Positions 18,010 through 64,000 of a stretch of 64,000 bases of DNA are shown one piece after another; the first letter of the stretch is position 1; each line of letters begins with the position of its first letter. This DNA is from Eledone cirrhosa (taxonomy: Eukaryota). The position numbers and the translations under genes were made by a program. Below the pieces are notes generated by a model, which had not been told where the DNA came from, searched no databases, and saw only the letters and a list, made by a program, of their open reading frames with translations. The stretch lies in NCBI GenBank assembly GCA_964016885.1, contig OZ024741.1:47182001-47246000 (forward strand), written 5' to 3'.

Positions 18010-20258
18010 TCGATGTCGGCCAACATAAGGATTTCGTCACTCTTCTGAAGAGAGAAAATCCATCTGTATTTACTGTTCGTTGTGTCATTCATCGACAACA
18101 TTTGGCTGCGAAGAAACTCAACAAGCCACTGAGCAAGTCCTTGCAGGTGGCCATTGATGTCATCAATTTTATCAAACGCCATGCCTGCAATGAACGAATT
18201 TTCTGGCAACTGTGCCAAGATAATGACGAAGAATTTGTCGAGTTGCTCCTTCATACTGAAGTGAGGTGGCTTTCAAAGGGCAAATGCTTTACTCGTTTCT
18301 TTGAATTGTTCGACTATCATTGAGTTTCTTTGAGGATGCAACACAGAACTGTACAAGAAAACCCTCGCTGTGAGGCAAGACTGTGCCTACCTCGACGACA
18401 TCTTCGACAAATGCAATAGTCTCATTATGGCTTTGCAGGGATACAGATATTCTTTGCTCACTGTCACCAAGCATCTCAATTCATTCGTTGCAACTAAGGG
18501 CGATCCTTGGTTTTAGTGTCCTAAATTATCATCATCGCCATTCAATTATTAGCTCCACCCACTATACGATACGCTGCTGCTTGATTTTTACGTTCATTTT
18601 CTTACATGCTTCATCATTTTTACATGAATATTTATTTACAGTTTTTAACAGAAAAAATATTGCTGCGAAATGCATTTTTTTTTAACAGATTTACAGTTTT
18701 TAACAACAGAAAAAAAATTTCTTTAAACAATATAGTGTTGCGATATACAGTTTAAAATCTTTTCAAAACATTTACCTTCACCAGTTGGATATGTGGCATT
18801 GCATCATCGCCACTCAAACTCCCTTAAATACAAGCAGGTGTTGGTCGACAATTCAGTTCAGCGATGTCTCTCATTCGTTAAATTGTCACGCATCGCAATA
18901 GTTATTCGAAAGAGCATGGCTGGAAGACCGCGTGCAGCACAATTTATTGTTGAGAATATTAATTCACCAGAAGAAACTTTAAATATGTATTTAACACACC
19001 GTGAAATGCATTTAATTACCGCAAATAATCGCTCTACTCTGGAATTTCTGGCTAGCAACCGGTTAATTTCAAATACTGCTAATTGTACTGCCTGCAATAT
19101 TTTATGTTCGTTTGTGACTTTGAAAGACGGGATTGATGGCTTTAGATGGAAATGTAAGGCAAGACTACGCCTACTTAACCAACATCTTCGACAAATGCAA
19201 TAACCTCATAATGGCTTTGCAGGGGGAGAAGATCACCTTGCTTAAAGCAAGGAATGCTGTGAAAACATTCCTGGCCAAATTGAATGTCATCGAAAGGAAT
19301 CTTTGTCGAAGGAAATTCTATCATTTTCCTAGTGTTGCCAATGTTCAAAACATTCTGAGCGATGACCAACTCCAAATTTATACCACTCACCTGTGCACTA
19401 CAAGACAACATGAGAGAACGGTTTGTCAATCTTTGGACGTTAAATTTCAGGAAGAATTCATTGAACTTCAAACAGATGACATCATCAAAATTAGATTTTC
19501 CAAAATAGGTGAACCCCTTTTTTGGATGCAAGAGGAAATTCAGTGTCGATTTCCACTCCTATATGCAGAGGCTAAGAGATTTACTCTGCCTTTTCCAAGC
19601 TCATACTTATTCGAGGGGGGGTTTGGCGCCGTTTCCAGACTGGACAGTTAGGCTCGCAACCACTACAATGTAATTACATGTGGAGATCTTCGGCTACATC
19701 TTACGAAAATCCAGCCCGACGTCAAAGAGTTAGCTAGACTCCATGAAGCTCAAGGATCCCATTGAAATGAGGTCAAAGTTAAAGTAAGTCTATTTATCCG
19801 AAAACTTGGATATGCTATTATTACGAAGCAATCTAACAAGTGGAACTAACATTAAAAGGAAAATTGGAAAGCTTTGAAATGATATAATTGCCATTTTCTT
19901 CCAGATAAGAGCACTCTTTGAATAGACAGTTTGGATAGACAGTTGCTCTTGCATAAATGTTCAAAATAGCTGGTATCACCTGGTGGGAATATAACAAATT
20001 CAACTGGTCCTTATTCATAAAAAAAAACATTTATGTTCCTTTTTTTTTAATTTATATAAATACTTCCTTTCAAAGGAATGTATTTATACTCTCAACTGCT
20101 TGCAATGGTATCTTTGGAATATTGTTAATTTTTTAGTAATCTACTGATATCAAAATCAGTAGTATATTGAAAAATGGGAAAATAGAGTAGGGAGGGGGCG
20201 TTTCATGATTTCGAGGGGCAAAAGGGAGCGTTTGGCCGAAATGGGTTAAGAACCTGTG
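18010..20258 (+). mobile_element. 3' half of hAT (Buster/Charlie) transposon(s), interrupted
   Basis: CVIHRQHLAAK, HTEVRWLSKG and PFPSSYLFEGGF. Right-end TIR-like GGTTAAGAACCTGTG followed by TACTAGAC (Charlie-like NNCTAGAN target). A ~65-bp segment is duplicated at ~18373 and ~19157 around an insert. Confidence 0.85.
18499..19155 (+). mobile_element. 5' fragment of a Merlin (IS1595/ISXO2-like) transposon
   Basis: LEFLASNRLISNTANCTACNILC...DGIDGFRWKC matches the Merlin N-terminal zinc ribbon (FL...LL...CxxC...DG..WRC). GGCGATCC at 18499 may be the TIR start. Confidence 0.6.
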
Positions 20259-21490
20259 TACTAGACGAATGGCTGACACACCACAACTTTAACCACGAAG
20301 ACTTTGCACAACAAACGTTTAAAGTCTGCCATAAGATCAACCCCAAAATAAACGGCTTACACATAACTAGAGTGAACAATTTGGGAAAAAGCTACATACT
20401 TAGATCGATATGCAACGGCCTCATGAACTGTGGAAGTACGAGATGCCAAGCAGCAGACAGCTTCACTTTCGGAAGATGTATAGATAAAACATTGATATAT
20501 ATACAGACGAAAGGTGGTTTACCACAAACAATGTAGAAGAAGCGAAATGCATTCTAGAAAACGCAGCTACATATATCAACATTAAGCACCAAAGCGAGAG
20601 AATTCTTAAAAAAACACCATCGCTATCCACAAGCAATGTCGAGCCATGGAACACAGTACTTAATGAAAAAGACGCCATATTGAATAGACTATTCTACTAC
20701 GAAAGCAGGGCAGGCCTCTCAAGAGGTTCAAAGACTGTGTGAAGTCCAGCATCAACAACACTGGAATTGCCCCAAAACAACTCGAGTCCCATGCTCAGGA
20801 CAAGACTGTGTGGTGAGCCGTTACCAGACGCGCCGAAGACTCTTTTGAAGAGAAGAGATGGGCAGAGGTCACTGAGGCCCGTGAAAGGAGGAGAAAGACA
20901 TCTGCAGCTGCCCCAAACGACTCTGGTCTCTTCCTCTGCTCCCACTGTCCCCGGACCTGCAAGTCAAGGATCGGCCTCCACAGCCACCTTCGCGCCCACG
21001 GCAGACGGGAACAACAATGAAGAAGATGTCATCATCGTTTACGAAAGACAACCAAGATTCTACTACAAAACAAAAAGAAAAATGTCAACTACAAGATTGG
21101 GGAAGAGTAGAAATCAACCCATTAATGTGGTTAACAGGATGGAAAAAAATTCATTGACAAGTACATTGACAATACATGTACACACACACACAACAATCAG
21201 CTACTTCGAAACACTTTCTATATGCCTGGAATCTGACCAAATGTCACCAAAGAAAAAAAAACTATTCAACGAGGGTAAACAACTAGAGAGAAAATTGAAA
21301 TACTGTCAGCTAGATGAAAACCAACCAGAACAAGCATGCCTATACCACAGCCAGATAGGGCCAGATTGCAATTTTGAAGAACCACCAAAAGCACCACCAC
21401 CAAACAGTCCTGAATGGAGCCCACTACCAATAGTAGATGAAACAGCTGAAGAACTATGACTAGACTACGTACCAAGACCAAACGAATTTG
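20259..21490 (+). pseudogene. Endogenous parvoviral element: NS1/Rep SF3 helicase and C-terminus
   Basis: From 20261: PKINGLHITRVNNLGKSYIL (Walker A), SFTFGRCIDKTLIY(fs)TDE (Walker B), VEEAKCILE...INIKHQSERILKKTPSLSTSN (B'/C) and AILNRLFYY. After an RTE insertion it resumes ...WGRVEINPLMW. Confidence 0.82.
20705..21056 (+). mobile_element. 3' end of an RTE LINE inserted in the viral gene
   Basis: GRPLKRFKDCVK...FLCSHCPRTCKSRIGLHSHLRAH (C2H2 tail). TSD ATTCTACTAC(G/A)AAA at 20691-704 and 21057-70. Confidence 0.88.
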
Positions 21491-21494
21491 TCCA

Positions 21495-21566
21495 ACTACT
21501 TAACAGAGAATACACACCACTACTTAACAGAGAATACACACCACTACTTAACAGAGAATACACACC
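21495..21566. repeat. 3 x 24-bp perfect tandem repeat ACTACTTAACAGAGAATACACACC
   Basis: Directly visible in the sequence. Confidence 0.95.
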
Positions 21567-21782
21567 ACACCTTTTTTGAAAAGATAATTTCCTTGCATGC
21601 AACGAACATTTCGAAGAATTATTCAAACAAGACGTTAATCAATACATTGACAATTTTCAGTAAGCAACAAGATCACAGTTCAGTTGTCTATATTTCTCTA
21701 ACTTTTAAATTAGCTGCAGGCTCTGGTCTGCAGGTCTTAATAAAACAATTGAAGCTTATCGATGTTGTTATTTACTATATTA

Positions 21783-24700
21783 CTCCCTCTGGTTGGAAAC
21801 TGTTGGTGCACAGTCAAAAACCAATTCCGGATTTTAGTTTTTCGTGCCAACTCATTGCGTCGGTGTGGAGTGTGCTGAAACTAAAACATTCACTGCTTAC
21901 GTTCAAAACCCATTCATAATTTAAAAAAACACGACTGTTTCTACCAGAGAATAGTTAAATTTTTTCAGGCCACCCGCAGAGACAAAGTGAATATGGAAAA
22001 GGAAGGGGAAAATAATATGAACAGTAAACAAAGACATGAAAAGCACGAATTAACAAACTCAGAACGAACAGCAGTCTTGCATGCACAACTGGAGAGATCC
22101 AAAGATCATTAGCTAGAACGAGGGGCTATCAAACATGTTGCATCAACATCCGGTATTGGAAGAAACACCGTAGGTAGAATTTGGTCCAGAGCCTTAGAAA
22201 GTTCATCCGATATATCTGTGCCAATGGACGTTTCAAACCGGAAACACCTCACAGGTCGAAAATAGAAAGACTACCGTGCAAATCTGGAAAAATTAAGCTC
22301 CATTCGCTTGCGAAAAAGGAGTACTTTGAGATCTACCGCCGAAGCATGTGGAATCCCGAAGACAACATTGATTGCTAGGATGAAAGATGGTGAGATTAGG
22401 CATCACTCAAATTCTGTCAAACCCTTTCTAACAGCTGAAAACATGAAGAATCATGTTGAATTTTGCTGTTCATACTTGGATATGAATCACGGAAGATTCA
22501 AAGAAATGCTGGCTGTTATACATATTAACGAAAAATGGTTCTATATGACGCAAAATACAAAGAAATTCTATTTAGGGAAGAATGAATGCGATCCATACAG
22601 AACAACTAAAAGCAAGCGTTTTATTACAAAGGTGTAGCAAGAGTTGCCTCCCTTATCACCAGTAGCGCTCTCTAAACAGGAAGTAGCTGGAGTTACTTCC
22701 CGTTGAGGTGGCAGAACCTTTGTCACTTCCGTTCTGGGACCCTATAAAGGAGGGAGCTTTCAGCTCTCTCCCTCTTTTCTAACCTGCCTGGCCCTTCAGC
22801 CAGGCGCGTTCGCCGAGGCTATACTTTCTGGCAACCTGAACATGGTAATGTAAAGACCACTTGGTCTCTTGCGAGATGACTTCAAAACGGTAATACAACT
22901 AACTTTAATTCATTCTTTTATCTCTCTTGGCATGTCAACTATTCTGCTCTACTACATAGCTCAACCTTGTTAAATAAACATTGTACAAACAATCGAGTGT
23001 CCTGTTATATTCATACAACTCAGTGCACCTGTTATAAGTGGTGACCCCGAGAAAAAAATAATAGGATCTGGTGTTGTGTGAATATGAAAAAAATAAGAAA
23101 ATTAATTAGAAAGAAAAAATTCCTCTAACAACATTCCACATGGATTTTGTCTAAAACGAAAAATAGAAGCAATTTTTTTCTCAGCAGCAAACAAACAAGA
23201 AAAAATGTTGTTCTTCACCTAACGTTTACATCGTTTGGGTGTCGCTACTTTTTCGTCACTTTCAAATAAAAAAAATTGAACTCTCGCCATATACAAAGCT
23301 TTTCCTTCTTTTTCATATCACGTTCACAAACAAATTTTTCAAAATGGCTGCCAACGACCTGTTGCACTATCATTTTCACGCCATTTTCTCGCGCAATAGA
23401 AATATTTTTTTTAACACTTGACTTTAACCTTGTTTCGGCACGTGGGAGTACACATCTTGACTCACTGATATAACACACGCCATAGATAATGTTTCTTGCC
23501 AAGGATTCTCCAGCCTTAAGCTATATTCTCCTATTTGCCGGTTTAAAAATTTACCACGTAAATTTGCCGTTGAAAACTGCGCATTTATTCAGAATTATTA
23601 TTTCTTTGGTCGCTGGCCTCTTGACCCTTCCAGGTCAACGCGTTCTCAACATCGACCATCAACTTTGGCTGTTATTTCTAGCACATTGCGCAACTCATTT
23701 TTTCTGGGAAACTTTTTTACTGTGTATCGAAACAAGTTCTAGCCAATGCATCTTTGCTGGCTCACCCAGTGTCCAACGCTAAGCTTTCGCTTTGTGTTGA
23801 TGCGTCGGATACTGCCGTGGGCGCGGTTTTGCAGCAAAGTAGAAACGATCAACAGCAACCGTTGGAATTTTTCTCCAGGAAGCTGAAACCTGCCGAAACC
23901 CACTACAGCACTTTTGGACGGGAGTTGCTAGCAATATATTTATCGGTGAAACATTTTTCGCACATGCTTGAGAGAAGAACGTTTACTATCTTCACGGACC
24001 ACAAGCCGTTGACATTCACCTTGCAAGCTAAAGCAGACAAATACTCACCTAGAGAAACTAGACATCTTGACCTCATCTCTTAATTTACAAATGATATTCA
24101 ACATATTCCGGATCATATCAATACAGCGGCCGACGTCCTGTCTCGTTTACAGATTACTTCAATCTCGTCGCCCGATGACATAGATTTGAATCACTTGGCA
24201 GCCGATCAGCCTACCCTCGAATCGTTGGATGTTACATCACCTGAATTTGTGAATTGCAGGATGAAATACCTACCTTTACCGACCGCAGAGGGATGGATCC
24301 TCTGCAATGTCTCTTTGGATACGCCACGCCCTTTTGTTCCGTTGAACCATCGTCGAACTGTGTTTCTTGTTTTGCACGGCATTTCACATCCTGGATCTTC
24401 TGCCACAGTAAAACTCATAACGGCTAGATTCTTCTGGCCAAATATGAGACGTGAAATTACTGTCTGGTGCCGTTCCTGTGTTGCTTGCCAAAAATCCAAA
24501 GTTCATAGACATATTAAGACTCCTCTTGGTACTTTTAGTAACCCGGACACCCGGTTTCGCCACATTCATGTGGACATCGTGGGACCTTGGCCCATCAGCG
24601 GTGGTTACAATTACTTATTGACGGTAATCGATCGTTTTTCGCGATGGCCTGAAGCCATCCCCTTGAGGGATATCACTGCTGAGACCACAGCGCGTACCCT

Positions 24701-27004
24701 TGTCTGGTTGGATCGCACGATATGGAGTGCCAACATCAATTACCACGGACCGTGGAAGGCAGTTTGAATCAAACCTCTTCCATGAATTGACGAAGATCAT
24801 CGGCGCTAAACGCATACGAACTACTGCATATCATCCTACCTCTAATGGAATGGTGGAGCGCTTCCACCGACAACTGAAAGCCGCTCTACGGACTTCTGAC
24901 TCTACGCGCTGGAGTGAGTACCTCCCTATTGTGTTGTTGGGGATTCGGTCAACAATAAAGGAGGACCTTGGGTTCTCCCCGGCCGAATTGTTATATGGTG
25001 CTCCTCTAGCGTTACCTGGGCAAATGCTTGCCCCTGTCGATCTTGCTGAACAAAATCCGCTTTCCTACGTATCCCATCTGCGTTCTTATTTTCAGGACCT
25101 GCCATCGATGGATACGAGGAAGCAAACTGTACAATTTGCAGTCCCGAGGGATATTGCCTTGTGGACCCATGTGTTTGTAAGAAACGATGCTGTGAAACCA
25201 CCTCTCACACAACCATATTCTGGACCCTACTGTGTATTAGCTCGTTCAGAGAAACATTTCACTGCAGACATTAAGGGTTCCAGAGAGACGGTTTCTATTG
25301 ATAGACTCAAACGACCACATTTGGATACAGATGCTATCGCACCTGAGCCACAAACGCCCCCGTCTTTTTCTTTCGCACACACACCTGCTTCTTCGTCCCC
25401 CCATCGCCAAGATATAAGACTACGATCCGTTCCGGTCGGAGGGTTCATTGGCCCAAAAAACTGTATAGCACAATATATTATTAAACTGCTATTGTGCGGT
25501 GCTTTAATCCTGTAGTGACTTTTGGAACTTTTAGGAAATTGTATTTAAATTTTATGACATTTGTTTTTTCCTTTCACGTTCTTGCATGCTTTTTTTTAAT
25601 ATGTACTTTTGAAACTTTTTGTGCCCTTCATGCTCGGTTGGGCTGATTGCTCCTTGGTTTGGGATTTTTGCTGATTGCTAATCGGTTTTTCTACATGCAT
25701 GATTTTATGAACCGATTTTTATTTAATTTTCTAAAAATCTGGTGGGAGGCTATGTAGAAGATCACGCCATCTAGCGTTGGCTGCCTACACAGTCGATTAA
25801 CTGCCCTTAGTTCTGACGTCACGTTCTGACGTCAGTGGCTGAGACAATAACACTTGGACAATACCACTTGAAGACAATAGGTGTGCGATAATCACGCAGC
25901 GGCTTTAGAGATGACACCAACACCATGTGGCAGTATTTGACGTTTTAAACATATTCCCAACCTAGGAGCATTAATGTATTCATATATACTTTGTAATTGC
26001 TCCTACATATAAATAATGTTTTTTGTAACATAAATTGAGGTATGTCTTTATTCCTTGTTTGAAATGTGCCAGTAAACCATAACCAATTAGACGGGATGAC
26101 TGACGACCACTTCCCGCCTAAAAAGGTTATGTTTTTAGCATCTGTAGTTCAACCACGCTGGGATTCACATCGCAAATGCTATTTTGATGGTAAGCTTGGA
26201 ATTTGGCCATTTGTTACAAAAGAGGTGGCTCAACGTAAGAGTCGAAACAGGCCAAAGTCATGGATTCGGTAACAAAAGAGCAGATGTCAATTTCTAATTG
26301 AAGAAGTCCTGGTTTCAATTCGAGAGAAATGGCCACTTGGATCCAATCGACTACCCATCAAGATTCAGCAAGACAATGCTCGGCCACACATACATCCAAC
26401 AGATCCACTCCTCAAAGAAGCTGCAGAGAGATTGGGATTAAATATTGAATTGGTTTGTCAACCTCCTAACAGTCCTGACCTGAATGTGCTTGACCTAGGA
26501 TACTTCAATGCCATTCAATCCCTACAGCACCAAAAGGCTCCAAGTAATGTTGATGAGCTAATTCTAGAAGTGGAAGACAACTTCCTGAAACTACAGAGAT
26601 CGAAGTTGAACAATATTTTCCTCACATTGCAGCAGACAATGGAGCAAATTCTTTTGGTTAACGGTGGCAACAACTACACACACCAGCATATGTCAAAAGA
26701 AAAGCTTGAAAGAGATGGCAAAATACCAACTTCTATCTCAATTTCAGAAGAATTGCAACGTAAGCAAGATTGTATTGAATAAATCCATTTGACTTTTATT
26801 CGTTATCTTTGTTTCTTGTCTCTCTTTATCATATTTTTGTACAGAATATAATGTACTACTATAACGTTAAAAATTATACATTTTTGAGTTAATTTGTATT
26901 TTCCCTTCTACACCTAACCTAACTAATGGCAACAATTCTATGCACCAACTGTTTCCGACCAACAGCAAAGGTTGTATGCACCAACTGTTCCCGACCAGAG
27001 GGAG
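21783..27004 (+). mobile_element. Tc1/mariner DD39D ('plant mariner'-type) transposon, split by a Gypsy insertion
   Basis: TA TSDs; 28-bp TIR CTCCCTCTGGT(T/C)GG(A/G)AAC(T/A)GTTGGTGCA. Transposase at ~22017-22632 and 26123-26782 with IHINEKWF, KVMFL, IQQDNARPH and PNSPDLNVLD; 39 residues separate the second and third Asp. Confidence 0.95.
22633..26122 (+). mobile_element. Internally deleted Gypsy (CsRn1-lineage) LTR element: 5' LTR, PBS, RNase H, integrase, PPT, 3' LTR
   Basis: Starts TGTAG; PBS TGGTGACCCCGA at 23039; RNase H VDASD...YSTFGRELLAI...TDHKPL; integrase [37 protein letters not shown] and a GPY motif; PPT GGTGGGAGG at 25741; 3' LTR from ~25752; 4-bp TSD AAGG. Confidence 0.92.
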
Positions 27005-27257
27005 TATTATTTATCTATTATCTTTGTGTATATATATATATATATAAGGGATACAGATATTGTTTGCTCACTGTCACAGAGCATCTCAATTCATTCATTG
27101 CAACTAAGTTTGTGATCGAGGTATTTTATTTTGCAAGGTACTATTTTTCCCTCGAGTTTGTGATTTCAGAGAAAGGCAAGAAATTCTTCATATTTTGCAT
27201 CTTTGGTATTTCGACTTTACAGTTTGAATTGTAGAATTGTTTATCCAATCAAAATAT

Positions 27258-54669: not shown

Positions 54670-54790
54670 CTCCCGATTTTGACATTAAATCCTGCAATGC
54701 AGCCAATGCTGCAACAGTTGAATTGAGATCCTTAGAGGACTTCTCCATCTCTAAGAGACAATTACGAAGCTTAGAGTTAGCAGTTTTTGC
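54670..54790 (-). CDS. Internal coding exon of the host gene (121 bp, phase 0 to 1)
   Basis: Acceptor TTTTCTTGTGTTTTGTTTACAG|, donor GAG|GTAAGA. Open frame AKTANSKLRNCLLEMEKSSKDLNSTVAALAALQDLMSKSG, helical or coiled-coil-like. Confidence 0.75.
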
Positions 54791-57190: not shown

Positions 57191-57632
57191 CCTACTAGCT
57201 CCTTTCTTCCCTTTTAAATCATAGTTGGTGAACAAAAGTATTATTTGGTACAGGTCTGCAATGGGCCAATCACTAGTTCACAGTCTTGTTGATGGTGAGA
57301 CTAACAGTGGAGAGTCTGTAACTCAGTACAGAACAAATATATAAAGAGACAGAAGAGCATTGCTTCTTCAGTTTTCTGAACACTGGATATACAACACAAA
57401 CAAAACATATATACACACACACACATATCTATCTATGTGTATGTAGTGTTTGTGTTGTGTGCCCCAAAATGTACACAGGTGCGCCTGCATGTTTACAAAT
57501 TCTGCCATGAACAAAAGGGTACTCAATACATGTAGAAGAGTAAATATGCATTTTGTTCATAATTTATTACTAGAGTTCACCAGTCCTACTATAGCAATTA
57601 CATTAATACCATTATACTCTTGGAGTGGATGA

Positions 57633-59741
57633 GGGGGGGGGGGGGGGGGGGGGGGGGGTGCTTATATGATAAATAGTGTGGCCCCAACCCTAGATAACAC
57701 GGCGCCAACCTTAGATAGCGTGGCCCCAACTCTAGATAACGCTGCGCCAACCTTAGATAGCGTGGCCCCAGCTCTCGATAGCGTGGCTCCAACCCGAGAT
57801 ACCGTGGCCCAACCCTAGATAGCGTGGCTCCAACCCTAGATAGTGTGGCTCCAACCCGAGAAAACGTGGCCCCAACTCTCGATAGCGTGGCTCCAACCCT
57901 AGATAGCATGGCTCCAACCGAAGATAGCGTGGCTCCAACCCTAGATAGCGTGGCGCCAACACTAGATAGCGTGGCCCCAACCCTAGATAACATAGCTCCA
58001 ACCCTAGATAACATGGCCCCAACCCTAGATAGTGTGGCTCCAACCCTAGATAGCATGGCTCCAACCCGAGATAGCATGGCTCCAACCCAAGATAGCATGG
58101 CTCCAACCCTAGATAGCATGGCTCCAACCCTAGATAGCATGGCTCCAACCCTAGATAGCATGGCTCCAACCCTAGATAACATGGCCCCAACCCTAGATAG
58201 CGTTTCCCCAACCCTAGATAGCGTGGCTCCAACCCTAGATAGCATGGCCCCAACCCTAGATAGCGTGGCTCCAACCCTAGATAGCATGGCCCCAACCCTA
58301 GATAGCATGGCTCCAACCCTAGATAGCATGGCTCCAACCTTAGATAGCGTGGCCCCAACTCTAGATAGCGTGGCCCCAACTCTAGATAACGCTGCGCCAA
58401 CCCCAGATAGCGTGGCCCCAACTCTCGAGAGCGTGGCTCCAACCCTAGATAGCATGGCTCCAACCCTAGATACCGTGGCCCAACCCTAGATAGCGTGGCT
58501 CCAACCCTAGATAGAGTGGCTCCAACCCGAGAAAACGTGGCCCCAACTCTCAATAGAGTGGCTCCAACCCTAGATAGCATGGCTCCAACCCAAGATAGCG
58601 TGGCTCCAACCCTAGATAGCGTGGCCCCAACCCTAGATAACATGGCCCCAACCCAAGATAGCGTGGTTCCAACCCTAGATAGCATGGCTCCAACCCTAGA
58701 TAGTGTGGCTCCGACCCTAGATAGCATGGATCCAACTCTAGATAGCATGGCCCCAACCCTAGATAGCATGGCTCCAACCCTAGATAGCATGGATCCAACC
58801 CTAGATAGCATGGCCCCAACCCTAGATAGCGTGGCTCCAACCCTAGATAACATGAATCCAACTCTAGATAGCATGGCCCCAACCCTAGATAGCATGGCTC
58901 CAACCCTAAATAGCATGGATCCAACTCTAGATAGCATGGCCCCAACCCTAGATAACATGGCCCCAACTCTAGATAGCGTGGCCCCAACCCTAGATAGCAT
59001 GGCCCCAACCCTAGATAACGTGGCCCCAACTCTAGATAACGTGGCCCCAACTCTAGATAGCGTGGCCCCAACCCTAGATAACGTGGCCCCAACTCTAGAT
59101 AGCATGGCCCCAACCCTAGATAGCATGGCTCCAACCCTAGATAGCATGGCTCCAACCCTAGATAGCATGGCTCCAACCCTAGATAGCATGGCTCCAACTC
59201 TAGATAGCATGGCTCCAACTCTAGATAGCATGGCCCCAACCCTAGATAACGTGGCTCCAACCCTAGATAGCGTGGCCCCAACCCTAGATAACGTGGCCCC
59301 AACTCTAGATAGCGTGGCCCCAACCCTAGATAGCATGGCTCCAACCCTAGATACCGTGGCCCAACCCTAGATAGCGTGGCTCCAACCCTAGATAGCATGG
59401 CTCCAACTCTAGATAGCATGGCCCCAACCCTAGATAGCATGGCTCCAACTCTAGATAGCATGGCCCCAACCCTAGATAGCATGGCCCCAACCCTAGATAG
59501 CATGGCCCCAACCCTAGATAACGTGGCCCCAACCCTAGATAATGTGGCCCCAACTCTAGATAGCGTGGCCCCAACCCTAGATAACGTGGCCCCAACTCTA
59601 GATAGCATGGCCCCAACCCTAGATAGCATGGCCCCAACCCTAGATAGCATGGCCCCAACCCTAGATAACGTGGCCCCAACCCTAGATAGCGTGGCCCCAA
59701 CCCTAGATAACGTGGCCCCAACTCTAGATAGCGTGGCTCCA
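57633..59741. repeat. Poly-G tract followed by a ~2.1-kb 21-bp minisatellite (GGCYCCAACYCTAGATAGCRT)
   Basis: About 100 units visible; accounts for the APTLDS / LSRVGA / LGLEP repeat ORFs. Confidence 0.97.
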
Positions 59742-60391
59742 ATGACATATTGGTAGCTACAGTTGCTTCAGTCTGACCTGTAGCTAAAGGATAATTTCAT
59801 CTCAAAATTCACATGACATGACAATTAATTTGACCTACTGTTATAGAGAACACTGGTATATAAACATACACACACATGTACAGACACACATATGCACAAA
59901 TACACAGACATGCACAAATACACAGACATGCACAAGTACATACAGACACACACATGCACAAATACACACAAACACACCATGGCTTTTCTTTCAGTTTCTG
60001 TCTACCAAAGTATTATAGGGGCTGAAGCTACAGAAGACGCTGCAGGAACTATACAGTAGAATAAAATCAAAAGTCATATGGTTGCAAGGCAGATTTCTTA
60101 ATGACATTTGTATGTTTATAACACACATTCCCTCATAGTCTCTCCATTTGTCTTGAACAAGTGAAAGAAGAGAAAAGAAGAGTGAAAGGAGAGGAGAGAA
60201 GAGAAGCGAAAAAAAAAAAGAAAAGTGAAAGAGAGAAGAAAAGTGAAAGAAGAAAATATAAATTAATAAGAAGTTAATTTAGTTGATCTATTGTTTATGA
60301 TAAATGTTAAAATTTCATTTCAACTTTGATCTGTGGAGGTTTGTTGAGAGAAATGGGTGGCTATTACATAATAGATGTTAGGATTGACAGT

Positions 60392-63300
60392 AATGTGGCA
60401 ACACCACCCCTCCATTACCTCAACTAATGTGGCAAGACCACAACTCCACAGTACCTCAACTAATGTGGCAACACCACACCTCCACAGTACCTCAACTAAT
60501 GTGACTACACCACCCCTCCATTACCTCAACTAATGTGGCAAGACCACAACTCCACAGTACCTCAACTAATGTGGGAACACCACCCCTCCATTACCTCAAC
60601 TAATGTGGCAACACCACACCTCCACAGTACCTCAACTAATGTGGCAACACCACACCTCCACAGTACCTCAACTAATGTGGCAACACCACACCTCCACAGT
60701 ACCTCAACTAATGTGGCAACACCACACCTCCACAGTACCTCAACTAATGTGGCAGCACCACACCTCCACAGTACCTCAACTAATGTGGCAACACCACACC
60801 TCCACAGTACCTCAACTAATGTGGCAACACCACACCTCCACAGTACCTCAACTAATGTGACTACACCACACCTCCACAGTACCTCAACTAATGTGGCAAC
60901 ACCACACCTCCACAGTACCTCCACTAATGTGACTACACCACACCTCCACAGTACCTCAATGTGACTACACCACACCTCCACAGTACCTCAACTAATGTGA
61001 CAACACCACACCTCCACAGTACCTCAACTAATGTGACTACACCACACCTCCACAGTACCTCAACTAATGTGGGAACACCACACCTCCACAGTACCTCAAC
61101 TAATGTGACTACACCACACCTCCACAGTACCTCAACTAATGTGGCTACACCACACCTCCACAGTACCTCAACTAATGTGGCAACACCACACCTCCACAGT
61201 ACCTAAACTAATGTGGCAACACCACACCTCCACAGTACCTAAACTAATGTGGCAACACCACACCTCCACAGTACCTCAACTAATGTGACTACACCACACC
61301 TCCACAGTACCTCAACTAATGTGGCAACACCACACCTCCACAGTACCTCAACTAATGTGGCAACACCACACCTCCACAGTACCTCAACTAATGTGACTAC
61401 ACCACACCTCCACAGTACCTCAACTAATGTGGCAACACCACACCTCCACAGTACCTCAACTAATGTGGCAACACCACACCTCCACAGTACCTCAACTAAT
61501 GTGACTACACCACACCTCCACAGTACCTCAATGTGACAACACCACACCTCCACAGTACCTCAACTAATGTGGCAACACCACACCTCCACAGTACCTCAAC
61601 TAATGTGGCAACACCACACCTCCACAGTACCTCAACTAATGTGGCAACACCACACCTCCACAGTACCTCAACTAATGTGGCAACACCACACCACAGTACA
61701 ACAACTAATGTGGCAACACCACACCACAGTACAACAACTAATGTGGCAACACCACACCTCCACAGTACCTCAACTAATGTGACTACACCACACCTCCACA
61801 GTACCTCAACTAATGTGGCAACACCACACCTCCACAGTACCTCAACTAATGTGACTACACCACACCTCCACAGTACCTCAACTAATGTGGCAGCACCACA
61901 CCTCCACAGTACCTCAACTAATGTGACTACACCACACCTCCACAGTACCTCAACTAATGTGGCAACACCACACCTCCACAGTACCTCAACTAATGTGGCT
62001 ACACCACACCTCCACAGTACCTCAACTAATGTGGCAACACCACACCTCCACAGTACCTCAACTAATGTGGCAACACCACACCTCCAGAGTACCTCAACTA
62101 ATGTGGCTATACCACACCTCCACAGTACCTCAACTAATGTGGCTACACCACACCTCCACAGTACCTCAATGTGACTACACCACACCTCCACAGTACCTCA
62201 ACTAATGTGGCAACACCACACCTCCACAGTACCTCAACTAATGTGGGAACACCACACCTCCACAGTACCTCAACTAATGTGGCTACACCATACCTCCACA
62301 GTACCTCAACTAATGTGGCAACACCACACCACAGTACCTCAACTAATGTGGCAACACCACACCTCCACAGTACCTCAATGTGACTACACCACACCTCCAC
62401 AGTACCTCAACTAATGTGACTACACCACACCTCCACAGTACCTCAACTAATGTGACTACACCACACCTCCACAGTACCTCAACTAATGTGGCAACACCAC
62501 ACCTCCGCAGTACCTCAACTAATGCGGCAACACCACACCTCCACAGTACCTCAACTAATGTGGCAACACCACACCTCCACAGTACCTCAACTAATGTGAC
62601 TACACCACACCTCCACAGTACCTCAACTAATGTGGCAACACCACACCTCCACAGTACCTCAATGTGACTACACCACACCTCCACAGTACCTCAACTAATG
62701 TGACTACACCACACCTCCACAGTACCTCAACTAATGTGACTACACCACACCTCCACAGTACCTCAACTAATGTGGCAACACCACACCTCCACAGTACCTC
62801 AACTAATGTGGCAGCACCACACCTCCACAGTACCTCAACAAATGTGGCAACACCACACCTCCACAGTACCTCAACTAATGTGACTACACCACACCTCCAC
62901 AGTACCTCAACTAATGTGGCAACACCACACCTCCACAGTACCTCAACTAATGTGGCAACACCACACCTCCACAGTACCTCAACTAATGTGGCAACACCAC
63001 ACCTCCACAGTACCTCAACTAATGTGGCAACACCACACCTCCACAGTACCTAAACTAATGTGACAACACCACACCTCCACAGTACCTAAACTAATGTGAC
63101 AACACCACACCTCCACAGTACCTCAACTAATGTGGCAACACCACACCTCCACAGTACCTCAACTAATGTGGCAACACCACACCACAGTACCTCAACTAAT
63201 GTGGCAACACCACACCTCCACAGTACCTCAACTAATGTGGCAACACCACACCTCCACAGTACCTCAACTAATGTGACAACACCACACCTCCACAGTACCT

Positions 63301-63485
63301 CAACTAATGTGGCAACACCACACCTCCACAGTACCTCAACTAATGTGGCAACACCACACCTCCACAGTACCTCAACTAATGTGGCAACACCACACCACAG
63401 TACCTCAACTAATGTGGCAACACCACACCACAGTACCTCAACTAATGTGGCAACACCACACCTCCACAGTACTTCAACTAATGTA
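60392..63485. repeat. ~3.1-kb 36-bp minisatellite (TAATGTGGCAACACCACACCTCCACAGTACCTCAAC)
   Basis: About 85 units, with 33- and 32-bp deletion variants. Confidence 0.97.
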
Positions 63486-63509
63486 GGTGACAACACCACA
63501 CCACTCACC

Positions 63510-63850
63510 ACCATCATCATTGCCCATGCCTAGTCATCATCGTTGTCCTTGCCTGGTCATCATTGCCCATACCTGGTTATCCTCATCATCGTTGCCCATG
63601 CCTGATCATCATCATCATTGCCCATACCTGGTCATCATCATCATCATTGCCCATGCTAGGTCATCATCATCATTGCCTATGCCTGGTCATCATCATCATC
63701 ATTGCCCATGCCTGGTCATCATCATCATCATTGCCCATGCCTGGTCATCATCATCATCATCGTTGCCCATGCCTGGTCATCATCATCATTGCCCATGCCT
63801 GGTCATCATCATCATCATCGTTGCCCATGCCTGGTCATCATCATCATCAT
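63510..63850. repeat. Variable tandem repeat TGCCCATGCCTGG(TCA)n
   Basis: Directly visible in the sequence. Confidence 0.9.
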
Positions 63851-64000
63851 TTAACCATATTTCAAGGCTTCAGTAGTCATGTGGCCATGTTTCCACAGCC
63901 AACCACTTTACAGCAGGAGCATACCGGTAGGCCAAGACCTAAATACCATACCACCTCTCTGCTTCTTTACTACCATCCTCTCCTTGCTTCTTTCATTCCA

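Follow-up and report, generated by a model that had tools for sequence, protein, structure and literature searches.

The question raised by this locus is whether a degraded stretch of coding sequence in the genome of Eledone cirrhosa is the remnant of a parvovirus and, if so, what kind of virus left it there. The DNA analyzed, referred to below as the window, covers 64,000 nt of contig OZ024741.1 (assembly GCA_964016885.1, positions 47,182,001 to 47,246,000 of the forward strand). An initial annotation, made from the letters of the window, had proposed that it holds a fossil of the NS1 gene of a mollusc-infecting parvovirus. That the host is a mollusc is borne out by its genome, where 39 matches to the molluscan haemocyanin beta-sandwich domain were found, mostly in runs of seven, as compared to none in 14 controls; seven haemocyanin units per gene is the octopod and nautilus type.

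A Broken NS1 Gene Bordered by Transposons

Positions 20259-21780 of the window correspond to a dead endogenous parvovirus NS1 fragment, made of the helicase half of the protein, its C-terminal tail and a polyA signal (Table 1). Both peptides quoted in the initial annotation are present at their places, one in a frame running from 20261 to about 20500 and the other in a second frame from about 20497 to 20700, and the change of frame near 20500 does fall in an AT run. The Walker A, B, B', and C regions of SF3 helicases that were read there could all be located, but Walker A and motif B' have each lost one near-invariant residue. The gene is then interrupted by a LINE flanked, as proposed, by a target-site duplication (of 10 nt), although the insert spans 20701-21056 instead of 20705-21056. 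Its removal does not restore a single frame, contrary to what had been suggested: the frame breaks again between 21067 and 21086 and once more after the stop at 21155, so that the copy displays at least three frame breaks. Nor does the viral sequence end at 21490, where its limit had been set; it extends to the last stop (21661-21663) and to an AATAAA signal (21739-21744). Weaker matches to longer NS1 frames resume after the LINE insert and reach about 21630, and positions 21735-21772 are 85% identical to the equivalent region of another genome copy.

Table 1. Features of the viral fragment and of its borders (positions counted from the first letter of the window).
Feature	Position	Strand	Evidence or remark
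3' end of high-copy hAT-type DNA transposon	20244..20258	+	5' border of viral piece; upstream frames match the hAT of the window; depth jump
NS1 piece A: pre-Walker helices, degenerate Walker A, start of Walker B strand	20261..20500	+	Parvo_NS1 E 0.019; 75-76% identity to natural homologues
NS1 piece B, other frame: Walker B, degenerate B', motif C, arginine-finger region	20497..20700	+	Parvo_NS1 E 5.4e-4; 63-64% identity
10-nt target-site duplication, left copy	20691..20700	+	
5'-truncated LINE 3' end, 356 nt	20701..21056	+	Copy comparison, weak C2H2 match, high depth
10-nt target-site duplication, right copy	21057..21066	+	
NS1 piece C: last part of helicase domain, beyond another frame break and ended by a stop (21155)	21086..21154	+	57-62% identity over 21 residues
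NS1 C-terminal tail; in-frame stops 21457 and 21577, last stop 21661-21663	21187..21663	+	
24-nt unit, three tandem copies within NS1 tail	21495..21566	+	
Viral 3' untranslated region, AATAAA at 21739-21744	21664..21780	+	Another copy is 85% identical over 39 nt
Tc1/mariner element, TA-flanked terminal repeats, nested LTR pieces	21783..27004	+	3' border of viral piece

On the 5' side, the viral piece had been described as cut by a hAT end. This is supported by the upstream frames, which match the Pfam-confirmed hAT of the window, and by read depth, which indicates a very high copy number as far as about 20258. In the 30 kb upstream of the viral piece, the corresponding 5' end of this transposon was not found. 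A putative hAT target octamer has an exact second copy in the window only downstream. The 5' remainder of the virus was found neither in the window nor in the 10 kb preceding it; within the window, the copy has no HUH half and no hairpin, no capsid gene follows the NS1 tail, and there is no VP match anywhere. Two repeats were noted besides: a 62-nt sequence occurs, with 93.5% identity, at 18437-18498 (inside the upstream hAT) and at 27047-27108 (just past the mariner element), and long short-tandem-repeat arrays at 57600-63900 give spurious open frames on both strands.

Parvoviral Origin of the Helicase and Its Two Lineages

Pieces A and B match consecutive stretches of the Parvo_NS1 profile of Pfam (88-162 and 164-209), with scores of 14.4 and 19.5 bits that are both below the curated cut-off of 20, and PDB sequence searches with each window piece alone returned no parvovirus or other relevant match. 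Compared by blastx to longer natural homologues, taken from this genome and from public data, the pair reaches E-values of about 1e-59 to 1e-61, far beyond chance. Close outside relatives are Logan proteins (45-62% identity), cluster look-ups leading to no named virus, and a DNA search of the 3.0-Gb genome identified 10 other places at 68-82% identity to the window copy.

A sister copy, whose longer NS1 frame served as a stand-in, matches Parvo_NS1 with an E-value of 1e-16 and has AAV2 Rep as its best PDB match. It also matches PPV_E1_C, weakly (E 6e-5), and this match, as well as the scores of the single window pieces below the Pfam cut-off, could speak for a helicase from a non-parvoviral SF3 source (papillomavirus E1-like, Polinton, or CRESS Rep) or from a cellular ATPase. 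A model of the helicase, folded from the sister copy and not from the window piece (111 sequences, pLDDT 95.7), has AAV2 Rep in first rank among PDB folds, with the E1 and large-T helicases present lower; 47 of its top 50 BFVD matches are parvo-, denso-, or parvo-like viruses, the others being two entries without a name and one of Vesanto virus. Parvoviruses come first in Pfam, PDB, and BFVD, and the sister copies adjoin a parvovirus VP1. The non-parvoviral origin, which is largely refuted by the fold search, the gene order, and the capsid match, appears extremely improbable, and the window element is almost certainly an endogenous parvovirus NS1, in agreement with the initial proposal. Sister copies also display, by eye, an HUH-like His pair with a downstream Tyr; this region gave no profile match, and the model of the full-length NS1 is poor (pLDDT 42).

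In a tree of proteins covering the core (129 of 161) and nine genome pieces, which includes no named parvovirus, both window pieces fall into one long-stemmed clade, lineage a (FastTree support 1.0). A second lineage of the genome, b, is about 27% identical to a in NS1 and stands apart from it in trees; a single origin of the two is neither established nor rejected (AU p 0.158 on 28 rows, quick LG+G4). Overall, matches in the genome number at least 58 for NS1, 14 for VP-a, and 31 for VP-b. Of note, a third lineage is possibly represented by a capsid fragment (L014:5442-5951) that shares 52% identity with lineage b across 92 residues and weakly matches IHHNV_capsid (E 0.046). In the clam Mactra antiquata, a protein encoded on a 27-Mb contig and annotated as hypothetical (P0060) is a distant NS1 relative, likely another mollusc endogenous parvovirus.

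Decay, Age, and Presence in Several Animals

With 11 outside proteins as reference, 16 of 89 near-fixed NS1 columns are altered in the window copy; the same columns show zero to five alterations in the outside proteins, while two genome copies with long frames have six and eight, and a second decayed copy has 21. By rough arithmetic, the decay of the window copy amounts to about 6% of neutral change. As the initial annotation had proposed, the viral insertion is older than the LINE, since the latter sits within the NS1 gene with a target duplication. This insert, which we take to be of the RTE class from its C-terminal zinc finger, has 748 candidate copies, 40 of which were scored; the 39 others are 90-93% identical to the insert, which diverges by 7-10% from these nearest scored copies. 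With an octopus substitution rate of about 0.0036 per million years, this would translate, as a soft estimate, into an order of 10-20 million years.

Short-read contigs, from reads possibly of the source animal, carry identical letters and breaks (0-1 differences, no gaps) and bridge both the host-virus and the LINE-virus junctions; the frame breaks are therefore no assembly errors. A few reads with at least 96% identity over unique parts were also found in three other samples of one further study, and are likely derived from the window locus because the nearest paralogue is only 82% identical. The fragment is thus joined to host DNA, carries disabling mutations and is represented by reads from more than one animal, as is expected from an endogenous viral element. 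No orthologous insertion was seen, the runs of two other organisms matching the LINE insert only. The window copy would have integrated by chance, lost its 5' part and decayed neutrally, and would yield no working protein. By itself, it is an ordinary fossil.

Capsid-First Gene Order in the Sister Copies

As the window copy is devoid of capsid gene, HUH half, and hairpin, the gene order of its parent has to be deduced from its relatives. In sister copies of both lineages, a hairpin, a VP1 gene with a PLA2 domain, NS1, and a second hairpin follow each other on one strand. The capsid genes adjoining NS1 copies have, in addition to PLA2, profile matches to AAV VP1 (E 9e-12) and to the capsid of the Penaeus monodon metallodensovirus, PmMDV (E 1.5e-6). 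A parvovirus-type SF3 NS1 and a VP-type capsid gene, the latter in the sister copies only and judged from sequence, are both traits of the Parvoviridae.

Gene order was counted over 36 ten-kb genome stretches, covering many but not all NS1 and VP matches. In 6 of 11 cases for lineage a and in all 12 for lineage b, NS1 starts no more than 600 nt after the end of a VP of the same lineage, while no same-lineage VP starts within 1.5 kb after an NS1 end (0/20 for a and 0/14 for b). Five lineage-a starts are without an adjacent VP end: in one case an LTR element has split the copy and the start lies in its second half, in two cases other parts of VP are found upstream, and in the remaining two there are none. 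These counts are not independent, because many stretches were picked by their VP matches and four lineage-b loci are near-identical. VP stop and NS1 start are separated by about 20-100 nt, and this short spacing is kept in lineage a even though its capsids are only 31-84% identical to each other.

Altogether, we hold with strong confidence that the capsid-first layout is native to the lineage. The order of the sister copies is likely that of a linear virus lineage, itself likely to infect cephalopods, and the window contains a broken germline copy of the 3' half of an NS1 gene from it. The window copy corresponds to the last third, on the 3' side, of a lineage-a genome, in keeping with an NS1 that ends in a polyA signal and is not followed by a capsid gene.

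Several loci hold more than one copy. At about 9.073-9.089 Mb of one contig (L038/L039, G000:C12), several parvovirus units from both lineages follow one another head to tail in the same orientation, all of them capsid-first. Similar pile-ups occur on C2 at 345.37 Mb (L014-L016), C841, and C25, and all of these resemble hot spots of integration or retention. At another locus, frames that we presume from their motifs to be Helitron-like (L012:2194-5095) lie a few kb upstream of a viral copy.

Genome Ends and the Probable Linear Form of the Parent

In lineage a, a hairpin with arms of 26-46 pairs lies upstream of VP in three copies, with a fourth showing part of one; three copies have such a hairpin downstream of NS1. 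These end hairpins are strong (z of -8 to -18.5), and only 24 such hairpins occur in 360 kb, none of them in the VP-NS1 gaps. Most copies have no hairpins, and one hairpin among those folded falls outside the viral stretch, indicating that host hairpins exist as a background. A 9-nt motif is found upstream of VP in 7 of 10 lineage-a starts, being absent from the other three, and in reversed form near two right ends. The two ends of one broken copy lie about 4.3 kb apart; a linear genome of 4-6 kb between hairpins, another trait of the Parvoviridae, is found in the sister copies only. A common AGATGGCGG-type motif, which we take to be YY1-like, occurs in the right-end region downstream of NS1 at L038, L036, and L014.

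Recent lineage-b loci contain near-perfect palindromes of 1.4-3.1 kb, and such long palindromic duplications would fit rolling-hairpin replication; the 3.1-kb palindrome, centered just upstream of the VP start, looks like a dimer of hairpin replication. Near-identical lineage-b copies are present on four contigs (L049, L051, L052, and L055, on C10, C14, C998, and C5, respectively), three of them with long near-perfect palindromic rearrangements, and may result from very recent germline entry or copying. In addition, one capsid gene has at its end a perfect inverted duplication of 66 bp (L037:6156-6289) that resembles a template switch in hairpin replication.

These features bear on two other ways of reading the capsid-first order. 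The parent could have been circular, or have integrated as head-to-tail concatemers of an ordinary NS-VP genome, the capsid-first order then reflecting only the point of opening. Circular parvovirus-like genomes have indeed been reported (bioRxiv 10.1101/2024.03.25.586562), and one lineage-b locus carries two same-strand VP copies 4.26 kb apart. However, the repeat at this locus is joined via a head-to-head palindrome and not head to tail, a same-lineage VP start after an NS1 end was found in none of 34 cases, and hairpins lie before VP and after NS1 but not in the short gap between them. Hairpin positions and head-to-head palindromes both argue against a circle or head-to-tail concatemers, and we consider this reading improbable. 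Somewhat more doubtful still is the possibility that the capsid-first units are a parvovirus-derived mobile element spreading within the host genome. It would account for the dozens of copies (58 NS1 and 31 VP-b matches), the near-identical lineage-b copies on several contigs, and the clustering of viral copies among transposons, but the identity of lineage-a copies to the window copy is only 68-82%, as separate infections would leave, palindromic rearrangements break the near-identical b copies at differing points, and the capsid-first units retain a PLA2-bearing capsid gene. The parent favored here would be a linear virus, with a genome of about 4.3-4.5 kb that would replicate by rolling hairpin and carry a left promoter driving VP1. 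Scans of viral contigs and metagenome contigs returned no exogenous relative of the lineage.

Predicted Expression of the Two Lineages

The two lineages differ in the signals around their capsid gene, from which promoters and splicing can be predicted. In lineage a, a TATA box precedes VP and a second TATA-like box is present ahead of the NS1 start, in the gap or in the last VP codons; NS1 would accordingly be made from an internal promoter at the end of the capsid gene. None of the six lineage-a VP-NS1 gaps examined contains an AATAAA, and the VP and NS1 messages would therefore both end at the right-hand polyA site.

In lineage b, a conserved 18-codon leader followed by a donor in phase 0 is found, together with a TATA box, ahead of 9 of 10 VP starts, the tenth being an internal duplicate. 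An in-frame acceptor lies past the VP stop in 11 of 11 ends (five recognized by pattern and six by eye, with four of them identical). NS1 would here be spliced from the 18-codon leader across the entire capsid gene, while the unspliced RNA would give VP; the capsid gene of lineage b would thereby sit in an NS1 intron.

Strand Bias and a Possible Role in piRNA Production

The fragment had also been noted to share the orientation of the neighboring transposons, and to be antisense to a proposed piRNA precursor. The first point holds: all 13 Pfam-matched transposon frames at positions 1-57400 of the window, which represent about six separate elements, are on the + strand, as is the NS1 piece, and the one-way orientation that is a trait of unistrand piRNA clusters is thus present. 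The tally of all 109 frames scanned gives 69 on the + strand and 40 on the - strand. Transposons beside other viral copies are on the same strand in nine cases and on the opposite one in a single case, a tally that is unreliable since the probes missed several opposite-strand LINE frames. A candidate host exon with splice-like ends and no Pfam match lies at 54671-54790 on the - strand, i.e., opposite to the transposons.

This orientation raises the possibility that the piece has been kept by selection as an antisense piRNA template in a one-strand cluster, where it would provide a sequence-specific defense against this lineage of viruses. Such a role would concern its present function only and is compatible with the origin from a capsid-first virus lineage favored above. 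It is in line with the strand bias of the transposons, with the presence of reads of at least 96% identity over unique parts in three other samples, and with the antisense, 5'U piRNA-like RNAs that parvovirus-like sequences yield in starfish and anemone (PMC6085071). On the other hand, the bias rests on few independent elements, the minus-strand transcript is only putative, with the candidate exon near 54.7 kb having no Pfam match, and presence in several animals equally fits drift. If the piece has any present role, this would be to provide antisense RNA feeding piRNAs, to which we give slightly less than an even chance. A broader scenario, put forward as tentative, is that cephalopods carry undescribed capsid-first parvoviruses of subfamily level, which have two solutions for NS1 expression (an internal NS1 promoter, or a capsid gene in an NS1 intron), still circulate, continue to enter the germline, and would be gathered in one-way piRNA clusters that act as an inherited memory against viruses.

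Comparison With Known Parvoviruses

Parvovirus-related sequences of cephalopods are already in print, in the form of ESTs of Sepia officinalis and Euprymna scolopes and of the Octopus bimaculoides protein KOF81493; the mollusc sequences branch outside known genera (François 2016, PMC5013282). Judged by eye, lineage-a motifs are shared by the NS1 fragments of Sepia and Euprymna, and lineage-b motifs by the Octopus protein. These are fragments of 172-246 aa or less than 800 nt, as opposed to the whole genome layout described here, and the main text of that paper does not mention "gene order," "upstream," or "genomic organization" (PMC5013282). The short NS1 fragments in print thus look like members of the same lineages, and the new part would be the gene order of the sister copies. 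Word searches of an incomplete body of literature found no prior report of these elements or of a capsid-first order, but one of them also missed PMC5013282, so that absence from print is not established; the passages considered from PMC9896142, PMC6085071, and bioRxiv 10.1101/2024.03.25.586562 contain no capsid-first example either. On balance, the layout is probably unreported.

According to two reviews, NS is on the left and VP on the right in all parvoviruses (PMC11357303, PMC6631224); gene order is not named among the features of the Parvoviridae in the text or in the table of family characteristics of the ICTV profile (PMC6537627). Canonical monosense members (Parvovirinae, Iteradensovirus, Hamavirinae) resemble the sister copies in their SF3 NS1, PLA2-bearing VP1, jelly-roll similarity, and about 4.3 kb between hairpins with genes on one strand, but they have this NS-VP order, whereas the capsid gene comes first here. 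Members of the Densovirinae are ambisense in most genera, or monosense with an NS-VP order (Iteradensovirus), in contrast to VP and NS1 on one strand with VP first. In the Hamavirinae, the order is NS-NP-VP and VP has no PLA2, which novel hamaviruses lack as well (PMC9896142, PMC6631224), while in the sister copies PLA2 is present and the order reversed. The placement suggested by the initial annotation ("densovirus and hamaparvovirus types") is not supported, as relatives with a PLA2-bearing VP1 and a capsid-first layout fit neither type as described in the papers considered here.

A capsid-first order in two lineages with NS1 proteins that are about 27% identical breaks the NS-left pattern. 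Parvovirus replication genes lie beside the left origin and are expressed first, and a capsid-first order raises the question of how NS1 is made early. More generally, the cephalopod parvoviruses, so far short fragments, gain a genome anatomy with capsid, ends, and expression signals; the dozens of copies of differing ages provide a fossil series for a mollusc virus and make a piRNA-based antiviral memory in cephalopods testable.

Among individual systems, the top BFVD fold match of the sister-copy helicase is a 358-aa NS1 entry that is distant, with 33% identity, and that is likely an endogenous element of a marine invertebrate giving antisense piRNA-like RNAs (PMC6085071). PmMDV (Metallovirinae) is the only solved invertebrate parvovirus capsid matched by VP, over 48 residues (E 1e-5); its 4.37-kb genome has inverted terminal repeats and up to eight products (PMC11357303). 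Lastly, the lineage of the Swazi bat megaparvovirus (PMC13426907) has a PLA2-bearing frame 5' of NS1, and complete endogenous copies define its host; its genome of about 6.4 kb nonetheless has the capsid gene, without PLA2, after NS1, whereas here the whole VP1 precedes NS1.
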